Shown here: positions 5,375 through 14,269 of the stretch, piece by piece | Layout: every line of letters begins with the position of its first letter | How positions within the stretch are numbered: the first letter of the stretch is position 1 | Origin: Eubacteriales bacterium | GTDB lineage: Bacteria > Bacillota > Clostridia > Oscillospirales > CAG-272 | Assembly (NCBI GenBank): GCA_045654725.1 | Contig: JAZONX010000030.1 | Location: 5,906 to 69,905, forward strand | Length of the DNA stretch: 64,000 nt | Direction of reading: 5' to 3' | Translations under genes and position numbers: made by a program | The notes under the pieces: generated by a model | What the model was told of the DNA's origin: nothing | Database searches by the model: none | What the model saw: the letters and a program-made list of their open reading frames with translations, nothing else

Positions 5375-8005
5375 ATGGCAGACTATATTATTTTAGAGAA
5401 AAGAAGCGAGCTTAACTTTGTTACTCCTATGATGAAGCAATACCTTGAGGTTAAGGCGGAGTATGAGGATCATATCCTTATGTACCGCCTGGGCGACTTC
5501 TATGAGTGTTTCTTTGAGGATGCCGTTATAGCCTCTCGTGAGCTTGAACTCACTCTCACCAGCCGTGATTGCGGAGAGGGGAAAAGAGCTGCAATGTGTG
5601 GCGTACCTTTCCACAAGGCAGATGTCTACGTTGGTAGATTGGTCGAAAGGGGAATAAAGGTGGCAATATGCGAGCAGGTCAGCGATCCTAAAGAATCTGT
5701 TGGGCTTGTAAAGCGTGAGGTAACAAGAGTTGTTACTCCCGGAACTGTTACCGATGGCGCACTGCTTCCCGACGGAAAGAACAACTTCCTTATGGCTATA
5801 TATTATTCACAGGGTGTTGCAGCCGTTGCGGCTGCCGATGTTTCCACGGGAGAGATTTCCGCTACATTCCTTAGTGGAAAGGACGTTCTTTCGCTCATTC
5901 GTAACGAGATTGGAGCATATCAGCCCTCCGAAATCATTCTTAGTTGCAAGCGCGAAGAGCTTTCCGGAATTGCCGATTTTGCGGTAGAGAGATTTTCGAC
6001 ACTAATAACAGATAAAGCAGGCCGTCTTTTCGCATACGAGCGCGCAAAGGAGCTTACACGCCGTCATTTTGGTGAAGAAAGTTCGAAGCTCAATGAATCC
6101 GAGCTTATAATGGCATCGGGTGCGCTTCTTTCCTATATTGAAGAAACACAAAAGACTGACGTTGCATTCACACGTGGAATTAACGTCTATGCGAGAGGTC
6201 AATATCTTGACCTTGATTTAAATACAATAAGAAACCTTGAACTTGTCGAGGCAATGCGAATCAAGGGCAAGCGAGGTTCTCTCCTTTGGGTTCTTGATAA
6301 AACCAAGACTGCAATGGGCGCAAGACTTCTTAATTCATGGGTTCTTCGTCCTCTTATCGACCCTGTGAGAATTTCTCACCGTCAGGGCGCTGTACGAGAT
6401 ATGTTTCGTGACCTCAGATGCCGCGATGCACTTGGTGAGCTTCTTGCCAATATTAGAGATATTGAGCGTCTTACTGCGAAGGCGGTATATGGTACCGCTA
6501 ATGCGCGTGATATTAAGGCTATTGGCGATAGCATAAGATGTCTGCCTGAAATTAAGTCCTTAATCTCGCAATTATCCTCTCCTTCGCTCAAGAAAATTAC
6601 AAAAAATCTTGATACACTTGACGATATTTGCGAGCTTATCGGTGATGCGATTTGCGATAATCCCCCCCTTACGATTCGAGAGGGTGGTATGATCAGAGAC
6701 GGCTTTAACGCTGACGTTGATTATTATCGTTCGATTAAAAACGGTGGCCAGGATATTATGGCATCGATAGAGCAACGTGAGAAGGAAGCCACCGGCATTA
6801 AGACTCTCAAGGTCGCCTATAACAAGGTATTTGGATATTATATTGAGGTTTCGAAATCCTTTATCGACCAGGTTCCCGATAGATTTGTTAGAAAGCAAAC
6901 ACTTGCAAACTGTGAGAGATACATAACTCAAGAGCTGAAGGAAATGGAGAGTACTATTTTTAGTGCTGATGAGAAGCTTGTTTCTATGGAATATCAGATA
7001 TTCTCCAGTCTGCTTGCCTTCGTTTCCGAAAATAGAGATCGTATCCGTAAGAGTGCTTCTCTCATTGCCGAAATTGACGTTTACCGCTCTCTTGCAGAGG
7101 TCGCTGCAAAGAATAATTACGTTTGTCCTGAGGTTGATATTTCTACCGAAATCAGTATAAAGGATGGACGTCATCCTGTGGTAGAAAAGTTCGTCAAGGA
7201 TTCATATTTTGTTCCTAACGACACCACTCTCGATACCTCAAAGAATAAGATTATGATAATTACAGGCCCTAATATGGCCGGTAAATCAACATATATGCGT
7301 CAGGTTGCAATCATCACTATTATGGCGCAGATAGGCTCTTTCGTTCCTGCAAGAGAGGCGAAGGTTGGTATTGTTGATAAGGTATTTACTCGAGTTGGCG
7401 CATCCGACGATCTTGCATCAGGACAGTCCACATTTATGCTTGAGATGAACGAGGTTGCCTCTATTTTGAAGAACGCGACAAGCCGTTCGCTTATCATTTA
7501 TGATGAGGTGGGCAGAGGAACCAGCACATACGACGGTATGTCTATAGCACGAGCTGTTGTGGAGTACACACATTCCAAGAAGATAGGTGCAAAGACGCTC
7601 TTTGCCACCCACTATCATGAGCTTACCGATATGGAGAATGAGTTCGACGGAATTGTTAACTATAACATTGCTGCGAAAAAGCGCGGAGATTCTATCACAT
7701 TCCTTCGCAAGATTGTTCGTGGAGGTACGGATGATTCATATGGAATTGAGGTTGCAAAGCTTGCGGGAGTGCCCGGTGAGGTTGTAAAGCGCGCTAAGGA
7801 AATTCTTGCCGAAATCGAGTTGGATAAGCCTCGCGTGGTTGTAGAAAAGAATGTTGAGGCAGGCGGATTTGATCTATTCAGCGGAATAACCGCATCGGTT
7901 GAGAGCGAGGCTTGTGATAAAATCCGCAGCGTTGACATTAACACTCTTACTCCAATTGAGTCCATGAATCTGCTCTTTGAGCTTAAGAAAATGCTTTCCG
8001 AATAA
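5375..8005 (+). CDS. mutS: DNA mismatch repair protein MutS
   Basis: TPMMKQY, GDFYE, GPNMAGKSTYMRQ, DEVGRGTST, FATHYHEL. Confidence 0.98.
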   Translation: MADYIILEKRSELNFVTPMMKQYLEVKAEYEDHILMYRLGDFYECFFEDAVIASRELELTLTSRDCGEGKRAAMCGVPFHKADVYVGRLVERGIKVAICEQVSDPKESVGLVKREVTRVVTPGTVTDGALLPDGKNNFLMAIYYSQGVAAVAAADVSTGEISATFLSGKDVLSLIRNEIGAYQPSEIILSCKREELSGIADFAVERFSTLITDKAGRLFAYERAKELTRRHFGEESSKLNESELIMASGALLSYIEETQKTDVAFTRGINVYARGQYLDLDLNTIRNLELVEAMRIKGKRGSLLWVLDKTKTAMGARLLNSWVLRPLIDPVRISHRQGAVRDMFRDLRCRDALGELLANIRDIERLTAKAVYGTANARDIKAIGDSIRCLPEIKSLISQLSSPSLKKITKNLDTLDDICELIGDAICDNPPLTIREGGMIRDGFNADVDYYRSIKNGGQDIMASIEQREKEATGIKTLKVAYNKVFGYYIEVSKSFIDQVPDRFVRKQTLANCERYITQELKEMESTIFSADEKLVSMEYQIFSSLLAFVSENRDRIRKSASLIAEIDVYRSLAEVAAKNNYVCPEVDISTEISIKDGRHPVVEKFVKDSYFVPNDTTLDTSKNKIMIITGPNMAGKSTYMRQVAIITIMAQIGSFVPAREAKVGIVDKVFTRVGASDDLASGQSTFMLEMNEVASILKNATSRSLIIYDEVGRGTSTYDGMSIARAVVEYTHSKKIGAKTLFATHYHELTDMENEFDGIVNYNIAAKKRGDSITFLRKIVRGGTDDSYGIEVAKLAGVPGEVVKRAKEILAEIELDKPRVVVEKNVEAGGFDLFSGITASVESEACDKIRSVDINTLTPIESMNLLFELKKMLSE

Positions 8006-9987: not shown

Positions 9988-11130
9988 ATGGGCAAATTTA
10001 CTTTACTTAAAACCGAGGGCAGGGCGCGTAGAGGTCGCTTTGAAACCGTACACGGTACCATCGAAACCCCCGTTTTTATGAACGTTGGAACATCCGCCGC
10101 TATTAAAGGCGGTATTTCCACAATGGATTTGAAGGAGGTTAATTGTCAGGTAGAGCTTTCTAACACCTACCACCTTCACATACGTCCCGGAGATGATCTT
10201 ATCTATCGCATGGGAGGTCTTCATAAGTTCTTTAATTGGGATAGACCTGTTCTCACTGATTCGGGTGGATTCCAGGTTTTCTCGCTTGCTAAACTTCGCA
10301 AGATCACCGAGGATGGTGTTACCTTCAGCTCACATATGGACGGTAAGCGTATATTTATGGGCCCCGAGGAGTCTATGCAGATTCAGTCGCATCTCGGATC
10401 TACAATAGCTATGGCGTTTGATGAGTGCGTAGAAAATCCCGCCCCCTATCAGTACGTTAAAAATTCTCATGAGAGAACAATTCGCTGGCTCAAGAGATGT
10501 CGCGCGGAAATGGATAGACTTAATGCACAGGAGGGAACAGTAAACCCTCATCAGATGCTTTTCGGTATCAACCAGGGAGGAACTTACGAGGACCTTCGAA
10601 TTGAGAATATGAAGGCTATTCGTGAAATTGAGTGCGATGGCTATGCTATAGGCGGTCTTGCGGTTGGCGAGAGTGCAGATGTTATGTATCACATCATTGA
10701 GACAGTTGAGCCTTATATGCCTGTTGACAAGCCTAGATATCTTATGGGAGTCGGCACTCCTCAAAACATTGTTGAGGCAGTTTATCGCGGTGTTGATTTC
10801 TTCGATTGCGTAATGCCTTCAAGAAATGCTCGCCACGGCAATCTCTTTACCTGGAAGGGAAAGATCAACCTTCTCAACGAAAAGTACGCAGAGGATGAGA
10901 GACCTATTGCCGAGGAGTGTAATTGTCCTGCTTGTCGTCATTATTCCAGAAGTTATATTCGTCACCTCTTTAAGGCACGCGAAGCTCTTGGAATGCGCTT
11001 GGCAGTTCTTCACAATCTTTATTTCTATAACGATTTGATGCAGAAGATTCGTGATGCTCTTGATGAGGATCGCTACGAGGAGTTTTATCACACATACGTT
11101 GACCTTCTCGCAGAACGTCGAAAGGATTAA
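9988..11130 (+). CDS. tgt: tRNA-guanine transglycosylase (bacterial preQ1-type signature)
   Basis: TDSGGFQVFSL, AFDEC, GGLAVGE, RYLMGVG, Zn site CNCPAC...H. Confidence 0.97.
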   Translation: MGKFTLLKTEGRARRGRFETVHGTIETPVFMNVGTSAAIKGGISTMDLKEVNCQVELSNTYHLHIRPGDDLIYRMGGLHKFFNWDRPVLTDSGGFQVFSLAKLRKITEDGVTFSSHMDGKRIFMGPEESMQIQSHLGSTIAMAFDECVENPAPYQYVKNSHERTIRWLKRCRAEMDRLNAQEGTVNPHQMLFGINQGGTYEDLRIENMKAIREIECDGYAIGGLAVGESADVMYHIIETVEPYMPVDKPRYLMGVGTPQNIVEAVYRGVDFFDCVMPSRNARHGNLFTWKGKINLLNEKYAEDERPIAEECNCPACRHYSRSYIRHLFKAREALGMRLAVLHNLYFYNDLMQKIRDALDEDRYEEFYHTYVDLLAERRKD

Positions 11131-11131
11131 T

Positions 11132-12097
11132 ATGGGATTTATTTCAAGGCAGATAGAAAATTTCTATAAAAAAACTGTTTATAAACGTCGCGTTGATGAT
11201 GGTAGCCTTTTCTATTTCAAGGCAAGCGATTTTGACGGACTTGTTAGTGAGGAGTTTTCTTTCTTCACTAAAAGAGGGCATAAGCTAAAGGGGTTCTTTT
11301 ATCATTATCCCAACTTTATGCCAAACCGACTTATCGTTTTTGAACACGGTATGGGCGTTGGACACAGAGCCTATTTTAGGGAAATCGAACGACTTGCTCG
11401 CGCAGGATACCTTATATATTCCTACGATCACACAGGGTGTACCGACTCCGAAGGTGAGCACATTATGGGTCTTTCAGGTTCTATTGCCGACCTAGATGCT
11501 TGCATTACCGCTTTGCTTGAAAAGGGGTATAATCCTGAGCAAATTTCTGTAGTAGGTCATAGCTGGGGTGGATATTCTACAATGAATATTCTTGCATATC
11601 ACCCCAATCTTGCAAGCATCGTTGCGCTTGCCGGATTTGTATCTCTTTACGAGATGCTCGGGCAGGTAATGCCAAAAATCCTTCTGCCATTCAAATCTAC
11701 TATCTATCAACTTGAGGCAAAAACAAATCCCGAATATTACGAAAGCTCTGCGTTGGCAACTTTGAAAAATACAAAGGTTCCGGCGCTGATTATTCACTCT
11801 GTCGATGATGATTCGGTACACTTTGATCGTCATTTTAAGTTGTTAAAAAACAATCTTTCTGACAAGAAAAACATCACTTTCCTCGAGCTTAAGGATAAGA
11901 AGCATAATCCAACCTACACTGTTGATGCGGTTAATTACAAGTCGGATTTCTTCAAAGCTTATTCGAAGCGTGTTAAGAGGGGAAAAAACAAAAATAAGGA
12001 AGAGCATAAAGCATTTCTTATGTCCTACGATTGGCAGAGAATGACAGAGCAGGATGAGGATGTTTGGAGCAAGATATTAGATTTTTTGGCTATGTAG
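11132..12097 (+). CDS. alpha/beta hydrolase (serine aminopeptidase/lipase-like)
   Basis: HGMG, GHSWGG nucleophile elbow, DDSV and H triad candidates; ATG lies 1 nt after the tgt stop (ORF-track start 11051 overlaps tgt). Confidence 0.88.
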   Translation: MGFISRQIENFYKKTVYKRRVDDGSLFYFKASDFDGLVSEEFSFFTKRGHKLKGFFYHYPNFMPNRLIVFEHGMGVGHRAYFREIERLARAGYLIYSYDHTGCTDSEGEHIMGLSGSIADLDACITALLEKGYNPEQISVVGHSWGGYSTMNILAYHPNLASIVALAGFVSLYEMLGQVMPKILLPFKSTIYQLEAKTNPEYYESSALATLKNTKVPALIIHSVDDDSVHFDRHFKLLKNNLSDKKNITFLELKDKKHNPTYTVDAVNYKSDFFKAYSKRVKRGKNKNKEEHKAFLMSYDWQRMTEQDEDVWSKILDFLAM

Positions 12098-12126
12098 ATA
12101 GATTTTAGTAAAAAGGGGGAATAAGT

Positions 12127-13185
12127 ATGAAATTATTGCACTTGCGTTCAATTAGCCTGAAGCTAGTTATGCTTTCGCTTATGCATTTTGCAACGGATGG
12201 GCTTTGTGCTTATCTTGTTTTTGTAAAGCTTTACCCCGACAATCCCGGTGCCGCGTTCCTTATATTTGTTGCTTATAACATACTTGCCTTTGTAACTCAA
12301 TCACCTGTAGGAATGGTTATTGACAAATGTAATAAGCCCAAGCTGTTTCTTGCTGTGAGCATCACTATGATGATTGCCGGATATGCTTTTAGCAACCTAT
12401 GGTTTATCTCTGTTTTTATGATTGGAATTAGCAATTCCATCTTTCATGTGGCGGGCGGAAAATATGTTACCGACAAGAGTGGTAACAGTATAGTGCACCT
12501 CGGTATTTTCGTTTCTACCGGAGCAATTGGCTTGATGCTTGGTCAGAGATACTTTGCCTTTGTGGCTCTGCCTTATATTTTGTTCGGAATTCTTACAATT
12601 TGTGGTTTGTTTGTTATTTTCAGCGAAGACAGTGAAAGTATACCATACACCGAGGAATATGTAAATCCAAAGAGTGTTATTTATCCGTTTTTAGTAGTAC
12701 TAATAATAGTGTTTGCACGTGCATTTGTCGGTAAGGTTGTTTCTCCCGATTTTACTATTAAGGAATATACATTTATTTTGATTGCCCTTGCAACGGCATT
12801 AGGAAAGGCTGTGGGAGGTATTTGTTCTCGAATCTTTGGGATTAAGTCAACAACTTATGTATCCATGATTGCCTCGGCGATCCTGCTTACTTTCGGGATT
12901 GGAAATGAGATAAGCTTTCTTCTGGGCGTTTTTGCCTTTAATTTTACAATGCCGATTACACTTTATTTTGCAAACATTTTGCTTAAGGGAAGAGAAGGAT
13001 TTGCTTTCGGAAGTTTGGCGGCAACGCTGGCTCCCGGATACTTCCTTGCTATGTCGTTTTCATATTCAACTGCTATGCGTATAGCAACAGCTCTCCTTTG
13101 TGTTTTATCTATGATATCTATTATTATCATTTTGAGGAGGATAAGAAATGTTGCTCTCCCTCTTATTGTTGACAATAATTCTTGA
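12127..13185 (+). CDS. MFS-fold membrane protein, Fsr-like
   Basis: About 12 hydrophobic segments; HFATD, GISNSIFHVAGG, GKAVGG; RBS GGGGG upstream. Confidence 0.75.
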   Translation: MKLLHLRSISLKLVMLSLMHFATDGLCAYLVFVKLYPDNPGAAFLIFVAYNILAFVTQSPVGMVIDKCNKPKLFLAVSITMMIAGYAFSNLWFISVFMIGISNSIFHVAGGKYVTDKSGNSIVHLGIFVSTGAIGLMLGQRYFAFVALPYILFGILTICGLFVIFSEDSESIPYTEEYVNPKSVIYPFLVVLIIVFARAFVGKVVSPDFTIKEYTFILIALATALGKAVGGICSRIFGIKSTTYVSMIASAILLTFGIGNEISFLLGVFAFNFTMPITLYFANILLKGREGFAFGSLAATLAPGYFLAMSFSYSTAMRIATALLCVLSMISIIIILRRIRNVALPLIVDNNS

Positions 13186-13474
13186 GTGTTTAGCTCTGTT
13201 TGTATTGGGAGAGAAAAAAACGGAGTTTTATATTTTTTGGATCGCTTTAACATCATTTACAAATCTTGTTGCGAATATATACTGCATTTACATTTTTTCC
13301 GGAAGCTATGTTGAGTACATAATCACAGGAGTAGTTATAGAAATACTTGTATTTCTCATAGAATTTCTTTTGTGCTTTGCATATACCAAAAATAAAATTA
13401 AGAGCTTGAAATATAGCGCCATATGTAATACCACGAGTGTGATTTTAGGTTTATTAATTCAATTAATTATTTAA
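13148..13474 (+). CDS. small 4-TM membrane protein with polar residues in its helices (TxxxE, TN..N, ExxVxxxE, NxxS)
   Basis: GAGGAGG RBS at 13134-13140; overlaps the MFS 3' end; 108 aa. Confidence 0.85.
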   Translation: MLLSLLLLTIILECLALFVLGEKKTEFYIFWIALTSFTNLVANIYCIYIFSGSYVEYIITGVVIEILVFLIEFLLCFAYTKNKIKSLKYSAICNTTSVILGLLIQLII

Positions 13475-13491
13475 TATAAGGAGGATATCTT

Positions 13492-13665
13492 ATGTCTTTA
13501 CTTGATGTGTTGCCCGAAAGAGCTCCCTTGGTTGTGAAGGATACATCGTCCGATGGACCGATGGCTTCAATCTTTTCTCGTCCTGAGGTCATTGCTGCAG
13601 CAGCTGTTATAGGAGTTGCTATAATCGCGCTTGTTGTTATGATTGTTGTCCAAAGAAAGAAATAA
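13492..13665 (+). CDS. 57-aa single-TM micropeptide MSLLDVLPERAPLVVKDTSS...IVVQRKK (not in ORF track)
   Basis: AAGGAGG RBS at 13478-13484, ATG 13492, TAA 13663-13665; C-terminal TM helix and basic tail. Confidence 0.85.
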   Translation: MSLLDVLPERAPLVVKDTSSDGPMASIFSRPEVIAAAAVIGVAIIALVVMIVVQRKK

Positions 13666-13670
13666 GAGTA

Positions 13671-13811
13671 GTGTTTGCTATAAAGGTAAATGTAATTGAT
13701 GTTATTTCGCCTGTTGTAGTTTCCGAAGATACAATTTCATTGTTTGCAATAGTTATGGCCGTTGTTGCGTTGGCCATCGTTTTTGGTATTATAATTAAAA
13801 AGAAAATGTAG
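13671..13811 (+). CDS. 46-aa single-TM micropeptide MFAIKVNVIDVISPVVVSEDTIS...GIIIKKKM (not in ORF track)
   Basis: GTG 5 nt after the previous stop, TAG 13809-13811; same architecture and motifs as the upstream micropeptide; weak RBS. Confidence 0.65.
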   Translation: MFAIKVNVIDVISPVVVSEDTISLFAIVMAVVALAIVFGIIIKKKM

Positions 13812-13821
13812 TTTTTTACAT

Positions 13822-13859
13822 AAAAAGGGAGAACCAAAATTGGTTCTCCCTAAATTTTT
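13822..13859. terminator. bidirectional terminator
   Basis: AGGGAGAACCA-AAAT-TGGTTCTCCCT between convergent genes. Confidence 0.85.
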
Positions 13860-13861
13860 GC

Positions 13862-14269
13862 TTATTTATTGGTTAGATCGGGATTATGTTCGCCACAACT
13901 TCCATCAAACATGCCCGTCATATCGCAGAAAAATTTACCGTCAGTCATTTTAAAGCCAATAGCCTTAATAAAATCATCACTCGCGGCGCCGTCAATAGCA
14001 TAGCAGGTGTGCACACCGCACAAATCAATGAAATTCATAGTCTGTCTGGCAAGAATAAACATTGCTTCGAAATCATTTCTTCCGGGACCTTCTTTGATAT
14101 CGTATATGTATCCGCTTTTGGCAATCTCAAACTGCGACATACCCATAATTTCGCCGCTGTCTACGTCAAACATCTGATAAGCGAATGCATCAGCACGGAA
14201 CTCTGTATTACAAAGCTCGCAGATTCTTTTTTGCTCTGACTTTTCCTGAATAGGCGTAATTTTAAACAT
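13862..14269 (-). CDS. hypothetical protein (possible degenerate GNAT-like fold)
   Basis: 135 aa; TAATG overlap with the rluB stop. Confidence 0.7.
   Translation of the reverse strand: MFKITPIQEKSEQKRICELCNTEFRADAFAYQMFDVDSGEIMGMSQFEIAKSGYIYDIKEGPGRNDFEAMFILARQTMNFIDLCGVHTCYAIDGAASDDFIKAIGFKMTDGKFFCDMTGMFDGSCGEHNPDLTNK

Follow-up and report, generated by a model that had tools for sequence, protein, structure and literature searches.

A four-gene membrane module was found in a 64,000-nucleotide stretch of DNA (the window) from an Eubacteriales bacterium, positions 5,906 to 69,905 of contig JAZONX010000030.1 (GenBank assembly GCA_045654725.1, forward strand). The block encodes a 352-amino-acid (aa) protein with a predicted major facilitator superfamily (MFS) fold, a 108-aa protein with four transmembrane (4-TM) helices, and two micropeptides, A and B (Table 1). 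Among related loci, the MFS-fold and 4-TM proteins formed an obligate pair, and the pair travelled with type-I-oriented single-pass proteins that carry an N-terminal Asp tag, a C-terminal anchor and a basic tail. Moreover, the tag and the 4-TM domain occurred in one polypeptide in a sister family without the MFS. The analysis defines a recognisable N-terminal tag, its membrane partner, and a rule linking them: tag and 4-TM domain share one polypeptide where the MFS is missing and lie on separate proteins where it is present. The module, which combines a protein resembling a transporter with a small protein of four helices and buried acidic residues and with the Asp-tagged single-pass proteins, is widespread and unnamed, and it is carried by anaerobes of the gut and rumen, by wall-less Mollicutes and by methanogens. 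Searches that did not cover the small-protein catalogues published in supplements gave no family model, annotation or paper on it. The result also means that open reading frames (ORFs) of 37–60 aa, overlooked by gene callers, can be integral to transporter systems.

Pairing of the MFS-Fold and 4-TM Proteins

One genome per species was scanned, which confirmed 526 MFS loci, and the best 80 were kept. They came from Clostridia, Anaeroplasmataceae and other Mollicutes, Gastranaerophilales, Alphaproteobacteria, Dehalococcoidia and Methanosarcina. Among the carriers of the module are [Clostridium] polysaccharolyticum DSM 1801, Flintibacter muris and Methanosarcina sp. MTP4. The 80 loci were fetched by the MFS alone, and a hidden Markov model of the 4-TM protein was then run over all six-frame ORFs. 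The 4-TM protein was present in 78 of the 80 loci; the misses were L056 and L068, and the contig of the latter stops at the MFS gene. In 56 of the 78 loci the 4-TM gene lay directly downstream of the MFS gene or overlapped it, in 11 it was downstream with small tag genes in between, in 10, archaeal loci included, it was upstream, and in one it was fused. An even sample of the class gave the same picture, with the MFS family in 12 of 399 scored genomes, all 12 of which had the 4-TM protein (11 on the same contig).

Fusions were also examined. The 4-TM domain formed the C-terminus of proteins of 410–461 aa in 16 of the best 150 4-TM representatives, and the five inspected (P0173, P0214, P0229, P0241 and P0262) were MFS-4TM fusions that lack TM12 of the MFS, the first 4-TM helix following right after MFS TM11. 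Since an MFS protein begins inside and the bundle would begin outside, such a fusion is possible only without TM12, as was seen. The two proteins are regarded as an obligate pair because most loci have their genes side by side or overlapping, and several lineages have them fused.

Exhaustive searching with the 4-TM profile gave 2580 representative proteins at E ≤ 0.001, and the MFS family had at least 985 relatives at the same threshold. Within the genus of the window the module is rare: among 25 genomes, the window's own included, the 4-TM query matched two, and the MFS query matched a third (G020), where a divergent 4-TM gene was found by inspecting the locus. Clustering of the loci ORFs of at least 90 aa gave no recurrent partner beyond the MFS/4-TM cluster, a tagged family of about 270 aa (16 loci) and a Mollicutes family (8 loci). 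An opposite-strand cluster in 46 loci was rejected as spurious, since it is the MFS gene read in an antisense frame. In RefSeq, the MFS proteins are named "MFS transporter" or "hypothetical protein", the 4-TM proteins "hypothetical protein", and the 72-aa partner in Methanosarcina "DUF3149 domain-containing protein". All source names encountered for the 4-TM and sister-family proteins were likewise "hypothetical".

The N-Terminal Asp Tag and Its Carriers

The partners share the consensus D-Φ-Φ-x-x-P near the N-terminus (Φ, hydrophobic residue), which occurs in two forms. The leaderless form reads M-x-Φ-Φ-D-[VIL]-Φ..P, with Asp at position 4–5, and the other form follows a signal peptide ending V-[YF]-A|D-[VI]-[IV]-x-[E]-P. 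In both, a single TM helix with a Lys/Arg tail comes 0 to about 300 residues further on. A strict classifier detected the tag in 76 of 124 C-anchored same-strand ORFs near the pair (41 signal-type, 35 leaderless), compared with 0 of 54 C-anchored ORFs in the remainder of these loci or on the opposite strand. An earlier regular expression that required Pro gave 60 of 116 near the pair versus 2 of 44 elsewhere. The strict filter was passed by 59 of 83 loci, and further tagged ORFs were visible by eye in several others; D-x-x-P neighbours, which the first-pass annotation of the window had expected beside homologous pairs, are thus usually there.

The cleavage site was compared across 37 distinct signal-type tags (loci L005–L086), selected with a filter that required Asp at +1 and A, G, S or C at −1 and left −3 free. 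The residue at −3 was V, A, C, S, I, L, T or M in 37/37, that at −1 was Ala in 35 and Gly in 2, and Pro stood at +6 in 19. Because small or aliphatic uncharged residues at −3 and Ala or Gly at −1 fit the signal-peptidase-I rule, Asp is the predicted mature N-terminus of the signal-type members.

The cargo behind the tag was varied, being a bare tag plus anchor, WG beta-repeats, or the family of about 270 aa. A member of the latter in [Clostridium] polysaccharolyticum (L059:6061-7146, plus strand) carries a cellulose-binding domain, as annotated in RefSeq, in place of the C-terminal anchor, so the anchor is replaceable by another attachment device. The tagged proteins are not dispersed. Among the 523 anchored frames of the window's genome, only the two micropeptides pair an extreme N-terminal tag with an anchor, and all 11 matches to the 270-aa family in five genomes adjoin the module. 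The number of tagged gene copies per locus ranged from one to at least three.

Micropeptide A consists of an M-S-L-L-D-V-L-P tag, an acidic spacer of about 25 aa, one TM helix and a QRKK tail; it aligned with 19 peptides from related loci, among which D5 was invariant. Micropeptide B has a hydrophobic pre-sequence of nine residues, a D-V-I-S-P tag, a TM helix and a KKKM tail, and it fits the family alignment. Its start is atypical: there is no ATG, and from the GTG (13671..13700) it reads V-F-A-I-K-V-N-V-I-D-V, where relatives read M-F-L-L-D-V. Micropeptide B may be translationally coupled to A, or may be a decaying copy. A second, shorter peptide was found at its position in L007, L008, L010, L098 and L100, and relatives sharing the genomic context of the window carry the same pair, the long peptide first. 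The first-pass annotation had called the two micropeptides paralogous. Kinship is indicated by the family alignment and by the long and short pair in relatives of the same context, while pairwise BLASTP of A against B was not significant (E = 1.1). Similar small genes recurred where the MFS was only 27–31% identical to that of the window, and the ratio of non-synonymous to synonymous substitution rates was 0.15–0.35 in 8 orthologous micropeptide pairs, which indicates purifying selection on the predicted micro-ORFs; the row for L043 against L046, which had wrong coordinates, was discarded.

A further family of 120–138 aa was observed upstream of the MFS in Mollicutes-type loci (8 loci; for instance L018:2844-3248, L022:3625-4008, L024:2999-3415 and L027:3637-4005, all on the plus strand). 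Its members have L-L-D-V-x-x-P within a signal-peptide-like N-terminus and a Cys a few residues later, and lack a C-terminal anchor. They may be lipoproteins with the tag inside the signal peptide.

The Tag and the 4-TM Domain in One Chain

The 4-TM domain was detected in 34 of 401 genomes of the class sample, 22 of which lack the MFS and carry the domain in frames of 240–318 aa. Six such frames were inspected. In four, a signal peptide and A|D-[MV]-G-P-K-[PA]-S are followed by about 140 aa of ectodomain, with the 4-TM domain at the C-terminus, and two were an ANSAEPP variant. This cis family (Table 1), of about 240–310 aa with a conserved ectodomain, stands alone, without the MFS and without conserved neighbours. 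It has 1158 matches, every named one a "hypothetical protein", and no Pfam or NCBIfam model. The predicted mature N-terminus is D-[MIVF]-G-P-K-P-S-V or the ANSAEPP variant; in the alignment, the residue past the predicted cleavage site was Asp in 19 of 21 sequences, followed by a nearly invariant G-P-K-P-S.

The profile of the cis 4-TM domain matched the 4-TM family of the window in hhalign with a probability of 98.6% (E 8.8e-16, 104 columns), and the domain keeps the same invariant constellation (T..E, T-Q, E..E, N..S..G). The first-pass annotation had suggested that a similar TM domain is fused, in other Firmicutes, to secreted proteins whose mature form begins D-x-x-P, and the cis family, with a predicted mature start of D-M-G-P, bears this out. 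Two further fusions were seen, P0221 (tag, then 4-TM) and P0226 (4-TM, then tag, helix and basic tail), and both topologies are consistent with the tag lying outside. From the cis family and these fusions it follows that the primary partnership is that of the tag with the 4-TM domain, and that the MFS accompanies the split (trans) form.

The 4-TM Protein

The AlphaFold2 model of the 108-aa protein (predicted local distance difference test, pLDDT, 93) has four helices, at residues 2–19, 25–49, 54–80 and 83–107. Loops 1 and 3 are rich in Lys, so by the positive-inside rule both ends of the bundle would lie outside (N-out/C-out). In an alignment of 74 sequences, T9, E13, E65, E72, N94 and S97 were found in 74/74, N39 and G101 in 73/74 and T38 in 69/74. 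The polar residues inside the membrane, which the first-pass annotation had pointed out within the helices, were the most conserved positions of the protein, and E13, E65, E72, N94 and S97 were without exception.

The protein resembled no described family. It had no Pfam or NCBIfam match at E ≤ 1, SMR models included. SMR/EmrE proteins are about 110 aa long, with four helices and an essential Glu in TM1; the 108-aa protein is like them in size, helix number and TM1 Glu, but its invariant residue set differs, and the fusions imply a fixed N-out/C-out topology. The 4-TM profile gave a single chance-level row against PDB sequences (embigin, E = 1). Searching the model against the PDB with Foldseek gave no informative fold match (best E 1.0), and VIA-align gave a best Z of 8.8 to soluble four-helix bundles, a range common for helical models. 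The missing fold match is not proof of a new fold. In the ESM Atlas, the homologues P0011 and P0460 gave only unnamed "hypothetical protein" clusters.

The MFS-Fold Protein

The 352-aa protein scored 23.4 bits against Pfam MFS_1 over its N-terminal half only, and did not reach the gathering threshold of 33.4. Many homologues carry a precomputed PF07690 match, which, together with the sub-threshold score, places the family at the edge of the Pfam model. The AlphaFold2 model has 12 helices (pLDDT 90, predicted TM-score 0.88), and Foldseek matched it at E ≤ 0.001 to 227 PDB chains. All of the first 50 were MFS transporters, with TM-scores of about 0.53–0.70 and about 15% identity. The best match was the bacterial MFS transporter 6g9x (E 4e-8, TM 0.65), which we take to be a homologue of MCT. 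The model and its matches thus bear out the MFS fold proposed for this protein in the first-pass annotation. No NCBIfam model was matched at E ≤ 1. JGI labels some homologues "FSR family ... -like". The MFS alignment profile gave nothing at E ≤ 1 against PDB sequences. A tblastn search of the MFS against a plasmid collection gave no match, and none of the four block proteins matched a PADLOC family of anti-phage defence systems at E ≤ 0.1.

The MFS motif A, between TM2 and TM3, is G-x3-D-[RK]-x-G-[RK]-[RK]. In the corresponding region, G62 and D66 were invariant in 80/80 sequences, and the window reads G-M-V-I-D-K-C-N-K-P-K, which keeps the Gly, the Asp and the basic residues and has no second Gly. 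The invariant columns of the 80 sequences were placed on the helices of the AlphaFold2 model. They were H20, D24 (79/80) and C27 in TM1; Y50, N51 and Q58 in TM2, followed by D66; N103 and H107 in TM4; R198 in TM7; K227 in TM8; and N272, M275, P276 and T278 at the kink of TM10.

Proposed Complex and Alternative Explanations

We propose that the N-terminal Asp finger docks into a Glu-lined 4-TM bundle attached to the MFS and that the three together form a complex for transport or gating, whose substrate is possibly a metal cation, a reading that we judge to have about an even chance of being right. The four genes of the window would then encode one membrane complex. The tag would be an Asp-headed hydrophobic finger, exposed by ordinary signal peptidase or by the Met-x-Φ-Φ start of 3–4 residues, and it would insert from outside into a bundle whose core is made of three invariant Glu with Asn, Ser and Thr. 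With both ends of the bundle outside, the tag and the outer face of the bundle would be on the same side of the membrane. The bundle would be attached to the C-terminal side of the MFS, where the fusions place its first helix.

The MFS itself may be functional in transport, its substrate being cationic and most plausibly a transition metal. This is suggested by the 12-helix fold, the motif-A Gly and Asp, the His-x3-Asp-x2-Cys of TM1, the Asn-x3-His of TM4 and the Asn/Met/Thr of TM10; chemically, the central His, Asp, Cys, Asn, His and Met would be ligands for transition metals. The tagged partners would serve as tethered capture or gating subunits, pared in the window to tag and anchor in the form of the two micropeptides. 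In the cis family, tag and 4-TM domain are joined covalently at 1:1, which fits docking better than it fits enzyme-substrate turnover. If docking or gating is true, it would be a new principle for the control or loading of MFS transporters.

Co-folding of the MFS-fold protein, the 4-TM protein and micropeptide A gave a score of 0.47, compared with 0.02 for the best of three controls and 0.02 when the MFS was replaced. The runs agreed in at least 61% of contacts, and the partner pLDDT was at least 56. Among solved complexes, 58 of 80 attained the pass mark, as did 2 of 110 mismatched pairs, and the passes at or below 0.60 comprised 7 of the 80 solved complexes and both passing mismatches. The modelled support for the complex is weak.

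Several observations weigh against the docking complex. The entry of the tag into the bundle is something we infer and did not see, and the co-folding pass lies in the weak band. Leaderless members keep 3–4 residues before the Asp, and micropeptide B keeps nine, so a free amino group on the Asp is not universal unless these residues are trimmed. For an acidic tag to enter an acidic cluster, either a bridging cation or protonation is required, and we assume one of them. The metal link is drawn entirely from residue chemistry: Rfam on 16 loci gave no riboswitch and one tRNA only, and the clustering of loci ORFs of at least 90 aa gave no recurrent metal-related neighbour. The strict tag filter was failed by 24 of 83 loci, among them L055, L068 and L069, which have almost no downstream sequence. 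The varying copy number of the tagged genes is unlike that of a fixed-stoichiometry subunit. In addition, the residue at −2 was Tyr or Phe in 22 of the 37 signal-type tags and that at −3 was Val in 20, a conservation that exceeds plain signal-peptidase use and could point to a dedicated processing step.

Such a step is the core of the first alternative, to which we give a low probability. An intramembrane peptidase or transferase, in the form of the 4-TM protein or of the MFS with its invariant His/Asp/Cys face, would cleave off the Met-x-Φ-Φ start or the signal peptide or modify the Asp, with the MFS as supplier or exporter of a small molecule or of the freed peptide. The first-pass annotation had argued along these lines, by analogy with CTERM sorting or peptide maturation. 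Its tag peptides beside the pair, its conserved polar residues and the selection on the peptides stand, while cleavage or modification at Asp-Pro was not supported. One tag on unrelated cargo (WG repeats, the 270-aa family, bare micropeptides) follows the many-to-one logic of sorting systems, the residues before the Asp are conserved (Val at −3, Tyr or Phe at −2) and the leaderless pre-sequence is fixed at 3–4 residues. The buried invariant Glu, Asn and Ser of the 4-TM protein and His, Asp, Cys and Arg of the MFS could be catalytic, and weak LPXTG-anchor matches were obtained for 6 of 20 peptides (best E 0.0099).

The sortase/LPXTG, exosortase/PEP-CTERM and rhombosortase/GlyGly-CTERM systems (PMC1569441, PMC3237569) are similar to the module in that a short tag, a TM helix and a basic cluster on unrelated proteins are coupled to a polytopic membrane protein. 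Their tag abuts the C-terminal helix and is cleaved, and the substrates are often dispersed and numerous. In the module, by contrast, the conserved motif is N-terminal, up to about 300 residues from the C-terminal helix, and the sequence before that helix is not conserved, so it is not a CTERM-type signal. The partners are all adjacent, with no dispersed substrates found in 6 genomes, and the tag and the membrane domain are sometimes one polypeptide. The Asp of signal-peptide members already stands at +1 of an ordinary signal-peptidase-I-type site, and a 1:1 covalent union in a family with 1158 matches would be odd for an enzyme and its substrate. The 4-TM fold has no match to a known peptidase at the sequence level, and neither the MFS nor the 4-TM protein matched a sortase, exosortase or rhomboid family of Pfam or NCBIfam. 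Tag cleavage or sorting is less likely than docking.

A plain transporter with passive ancillary subunits is quite improbable. The 4-TM and single-pass proteins would only stabilise or traffic the MFS, and the Asp tag would have neither a ligand-like nor a substrate role. Basigin stabilises and traffics MCT1 as an ancillary single-pass partner, and in MCT1-basigin/embigin, AcrZ-AcrB and MgtS-MgtA a transporter is accompanied by a separately encoded single-pass or very small membrane protein. For the partners in these systems we know of no conserved N-terminal tag, no dedicated 4-TM adaptor and no cis and trans versions. Such a role would account for the tight MFS/4-TM pairing and the fusions, for the variable ectodomains of the single-pass partners, and for 6g9x, a bacterial MFS transporter, as the best Foldseek match. 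It would not account for a tag kept from Methanosarcina to Clostridia and seven invariant buried polar residues, which exceed the needs of a passive chaperone, and the tag/4-TM unit persists in the sister family without the MFS, so its function is not only service to the MFS.

Class II bacteriocin loci hold two small hydrophobic peptides, a 4-TM protein of about 100 aa and a transporter. The gene set of the block resembles them and its distribution is patchy (2 of 25 same-genus genomes by the 4-TM query and a third, G020, by the MFS query), but a two-peptide bacteriocin or membrane-toxin cassette, with active micropeptides, the 4-TM protein as immunity protein and the MFS as exporter, is highly improbable. 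The peptides are membrane-anchored, their basic tail is cytoplasmic, and they show no motif for leader cleavage. Their tag also stands at the front of secreted proteins of 200–360 aa and occurs fused to the 4-TM domain, and the module extends to wall-less Mollicutes and to archaea. Invariant buried Glu clusters across domains of life are unusual for immunity proteins, and there was no PADLOC or plasmid match.

Comparison with Known Systems

For the docking complex, the nearest parallels were found among metal transporters. In the NikM/CbiM ECF transporters for nickel/cobalt, small extra membrane subunits accompany the transporter. The likeness to the module lies in an extracytoplasmic N-terminus whose highly conserved first nine or so residues fold into the centre of a helical membrane domain as a metal site, as described in PMC3945884. 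In NikM, according to that paper, a nine-residue loop at the N-terminus enters the TM domain of the same protein and binds Ni through its free amino group (PMC3945884). The NikM finger, as described there, is Met-His with nitrogen ligands, set in a 7-TM S-component and driven by an ABC unit (PMC3945884), whereas the finger here begins with Asp, the acceptor would be a Glu-rich 4-TM bundle, usually on a separate polypeptide, and the partner is an MFS, with docking and metal binding as the inferred part of the comparison. No sequence or fold relation between NikM/CbiM and the module was found.

Hepcidin begins D-T-H-F-P (D-x-x-x-P), and TM1 of ferroportin carries an Asp-x3-His metal site, which the H20-x3-D24 face of the MFS resembles. 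Hepcidin occupies the outward-open cavity of ferroportin, and metal strengthens the binding, as reported in a preprint (bioRxiv 10.1101/2020.03.16.993006). The pose given there, which its authors call speculative, has the hepcidin N-terminus deep in the cavity (bioRxiv 10.1101/2020.03.16.993006). Hepcidin is a soluble disulfide-rich hormone, whereas the peptides here are tethered in the membrane, their genes belong to the operon of the transporter, and their first link is to a 4-TM protein, which ferroportin does not have. No homology to ferroportin was detectable, the MFS profile having given no PDB sequence at E ≤ 1.

Taken further, the Asp finger and the Glu bundle would be a new extracytoplasmic device for capturing and gating a cation or metal, which loads or plugs the MFS through a His/Asp/Cys/His/Met site. 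It would be a split, exchangeable NikM-like finger and an operon-encoded prokaryotic counterpart of hepcidin-ferroportin, spread from Clostridia to Methanosarcina and with an MFS-less cis version. We think this extension unlikely to be right. The parallels with NikM, with ferroportin-hepcidin and with the sorting systems are functional analogies, no homology having been detected.

Organization and Surroundings of the Block

The features are listed in Table 1. The ORF coordinates and the hairpin agree with the first-pass description of four tightly spaced plus-strand genes that end at one terminator. The hairpin closes both the block and the convergent gene beyond it; the region holds 4 terminator-like sites, and shuffles averaged 2.1. 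Upstream of each of the first three genes is a strong Shine-Dalgarno-like stretch (AAGGGGG at 12113-12119, GAGGAGG at 13134-13140 and AAGGAGG at 13478-13484, the last 8 nucleotides upstream of the micropeptide A start). The micropeptide B ORF begins 5 nucleotides past the stop of micropeptide A and is preceded by a weak AAGAG only. A search of sequencing runs listed no RNA run, and two DNA runs matched 0.08 of the sequence words.

Table 1. Features of the block and its surroundings, in window coordinates, and cis-family members in related loci (locus handle before the coordinates).
Feature	Location	Strand	Basis or remark
tgt-like gene	upstream of block		name from reading of the translation
Alpha/beta hydrolase gene	11051..12097	+	Hydrolase_4 7.6e-17, Peptidase_S9 3.7e-15; directly upstream of block
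MFS-fold gene, 352 aa	12127..13185	+	ORF list
4-TM protein gene, 108 aa	13148..13474	+	ORF list; 38-nucleotide overlap with MFS gene
Micropeptide A, 57 aa, MSLLDVLPERAPLVV..TM..QRKK	13492..13665	+	ORF list
Micropeptide B, 46 aa, GTG start, ..VIDVISPVVVSEDT..TM..KKKM	13671..13811	+	ORF list
Hairpin, 11-bp stem, 6 G-C pairs	13826..13851	.	terminator search; terminator-like on both strands
Convergent 135-aa gene (MFKITPIQEK...)	13862..14269	-	no Pfam or NCBIfam family
Pseudouridine synthase-like and D-Ala-D-Ala carboxypeptidase-like genes	downstream of block		names from reading of the translations
cis-family member	L101:2975-3850	-	
cis-family member	L102:2463-3398	+	
cis-family member	L103:2554-3438	+	
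cis-family member	L104:2539-3351	+	
cis-family member	L105:2640-3359	+	
cis-family member	L106:2983-3894	-	

The block is AT-richer than its flanks, as had been noticed at first pass, with a GC content of 0.34–0.40 compared with 0.42–0.48, and the AT skew is strongly negative. Such a skew is expected for T-rich membrane-protein genes and explains the low GC, which is thus in itself no sign of horizontal transfer.

An alpha/beta hydrolase gene also precedes the module in locus L008. In the window, the listed GTG start of the hydrolase overlaps the end of the tgt-like gene by 80 nucleotides, so its true start is probably the internal Met of MGFISRQ. The 135-aa gene and the pseudouridine-synthase-like gene lie directly downstream of the module in the relatives L012, L098 and L100 as well, and this kept context of the 135-aa gene marks vertical inheritance within a sub-lineage.

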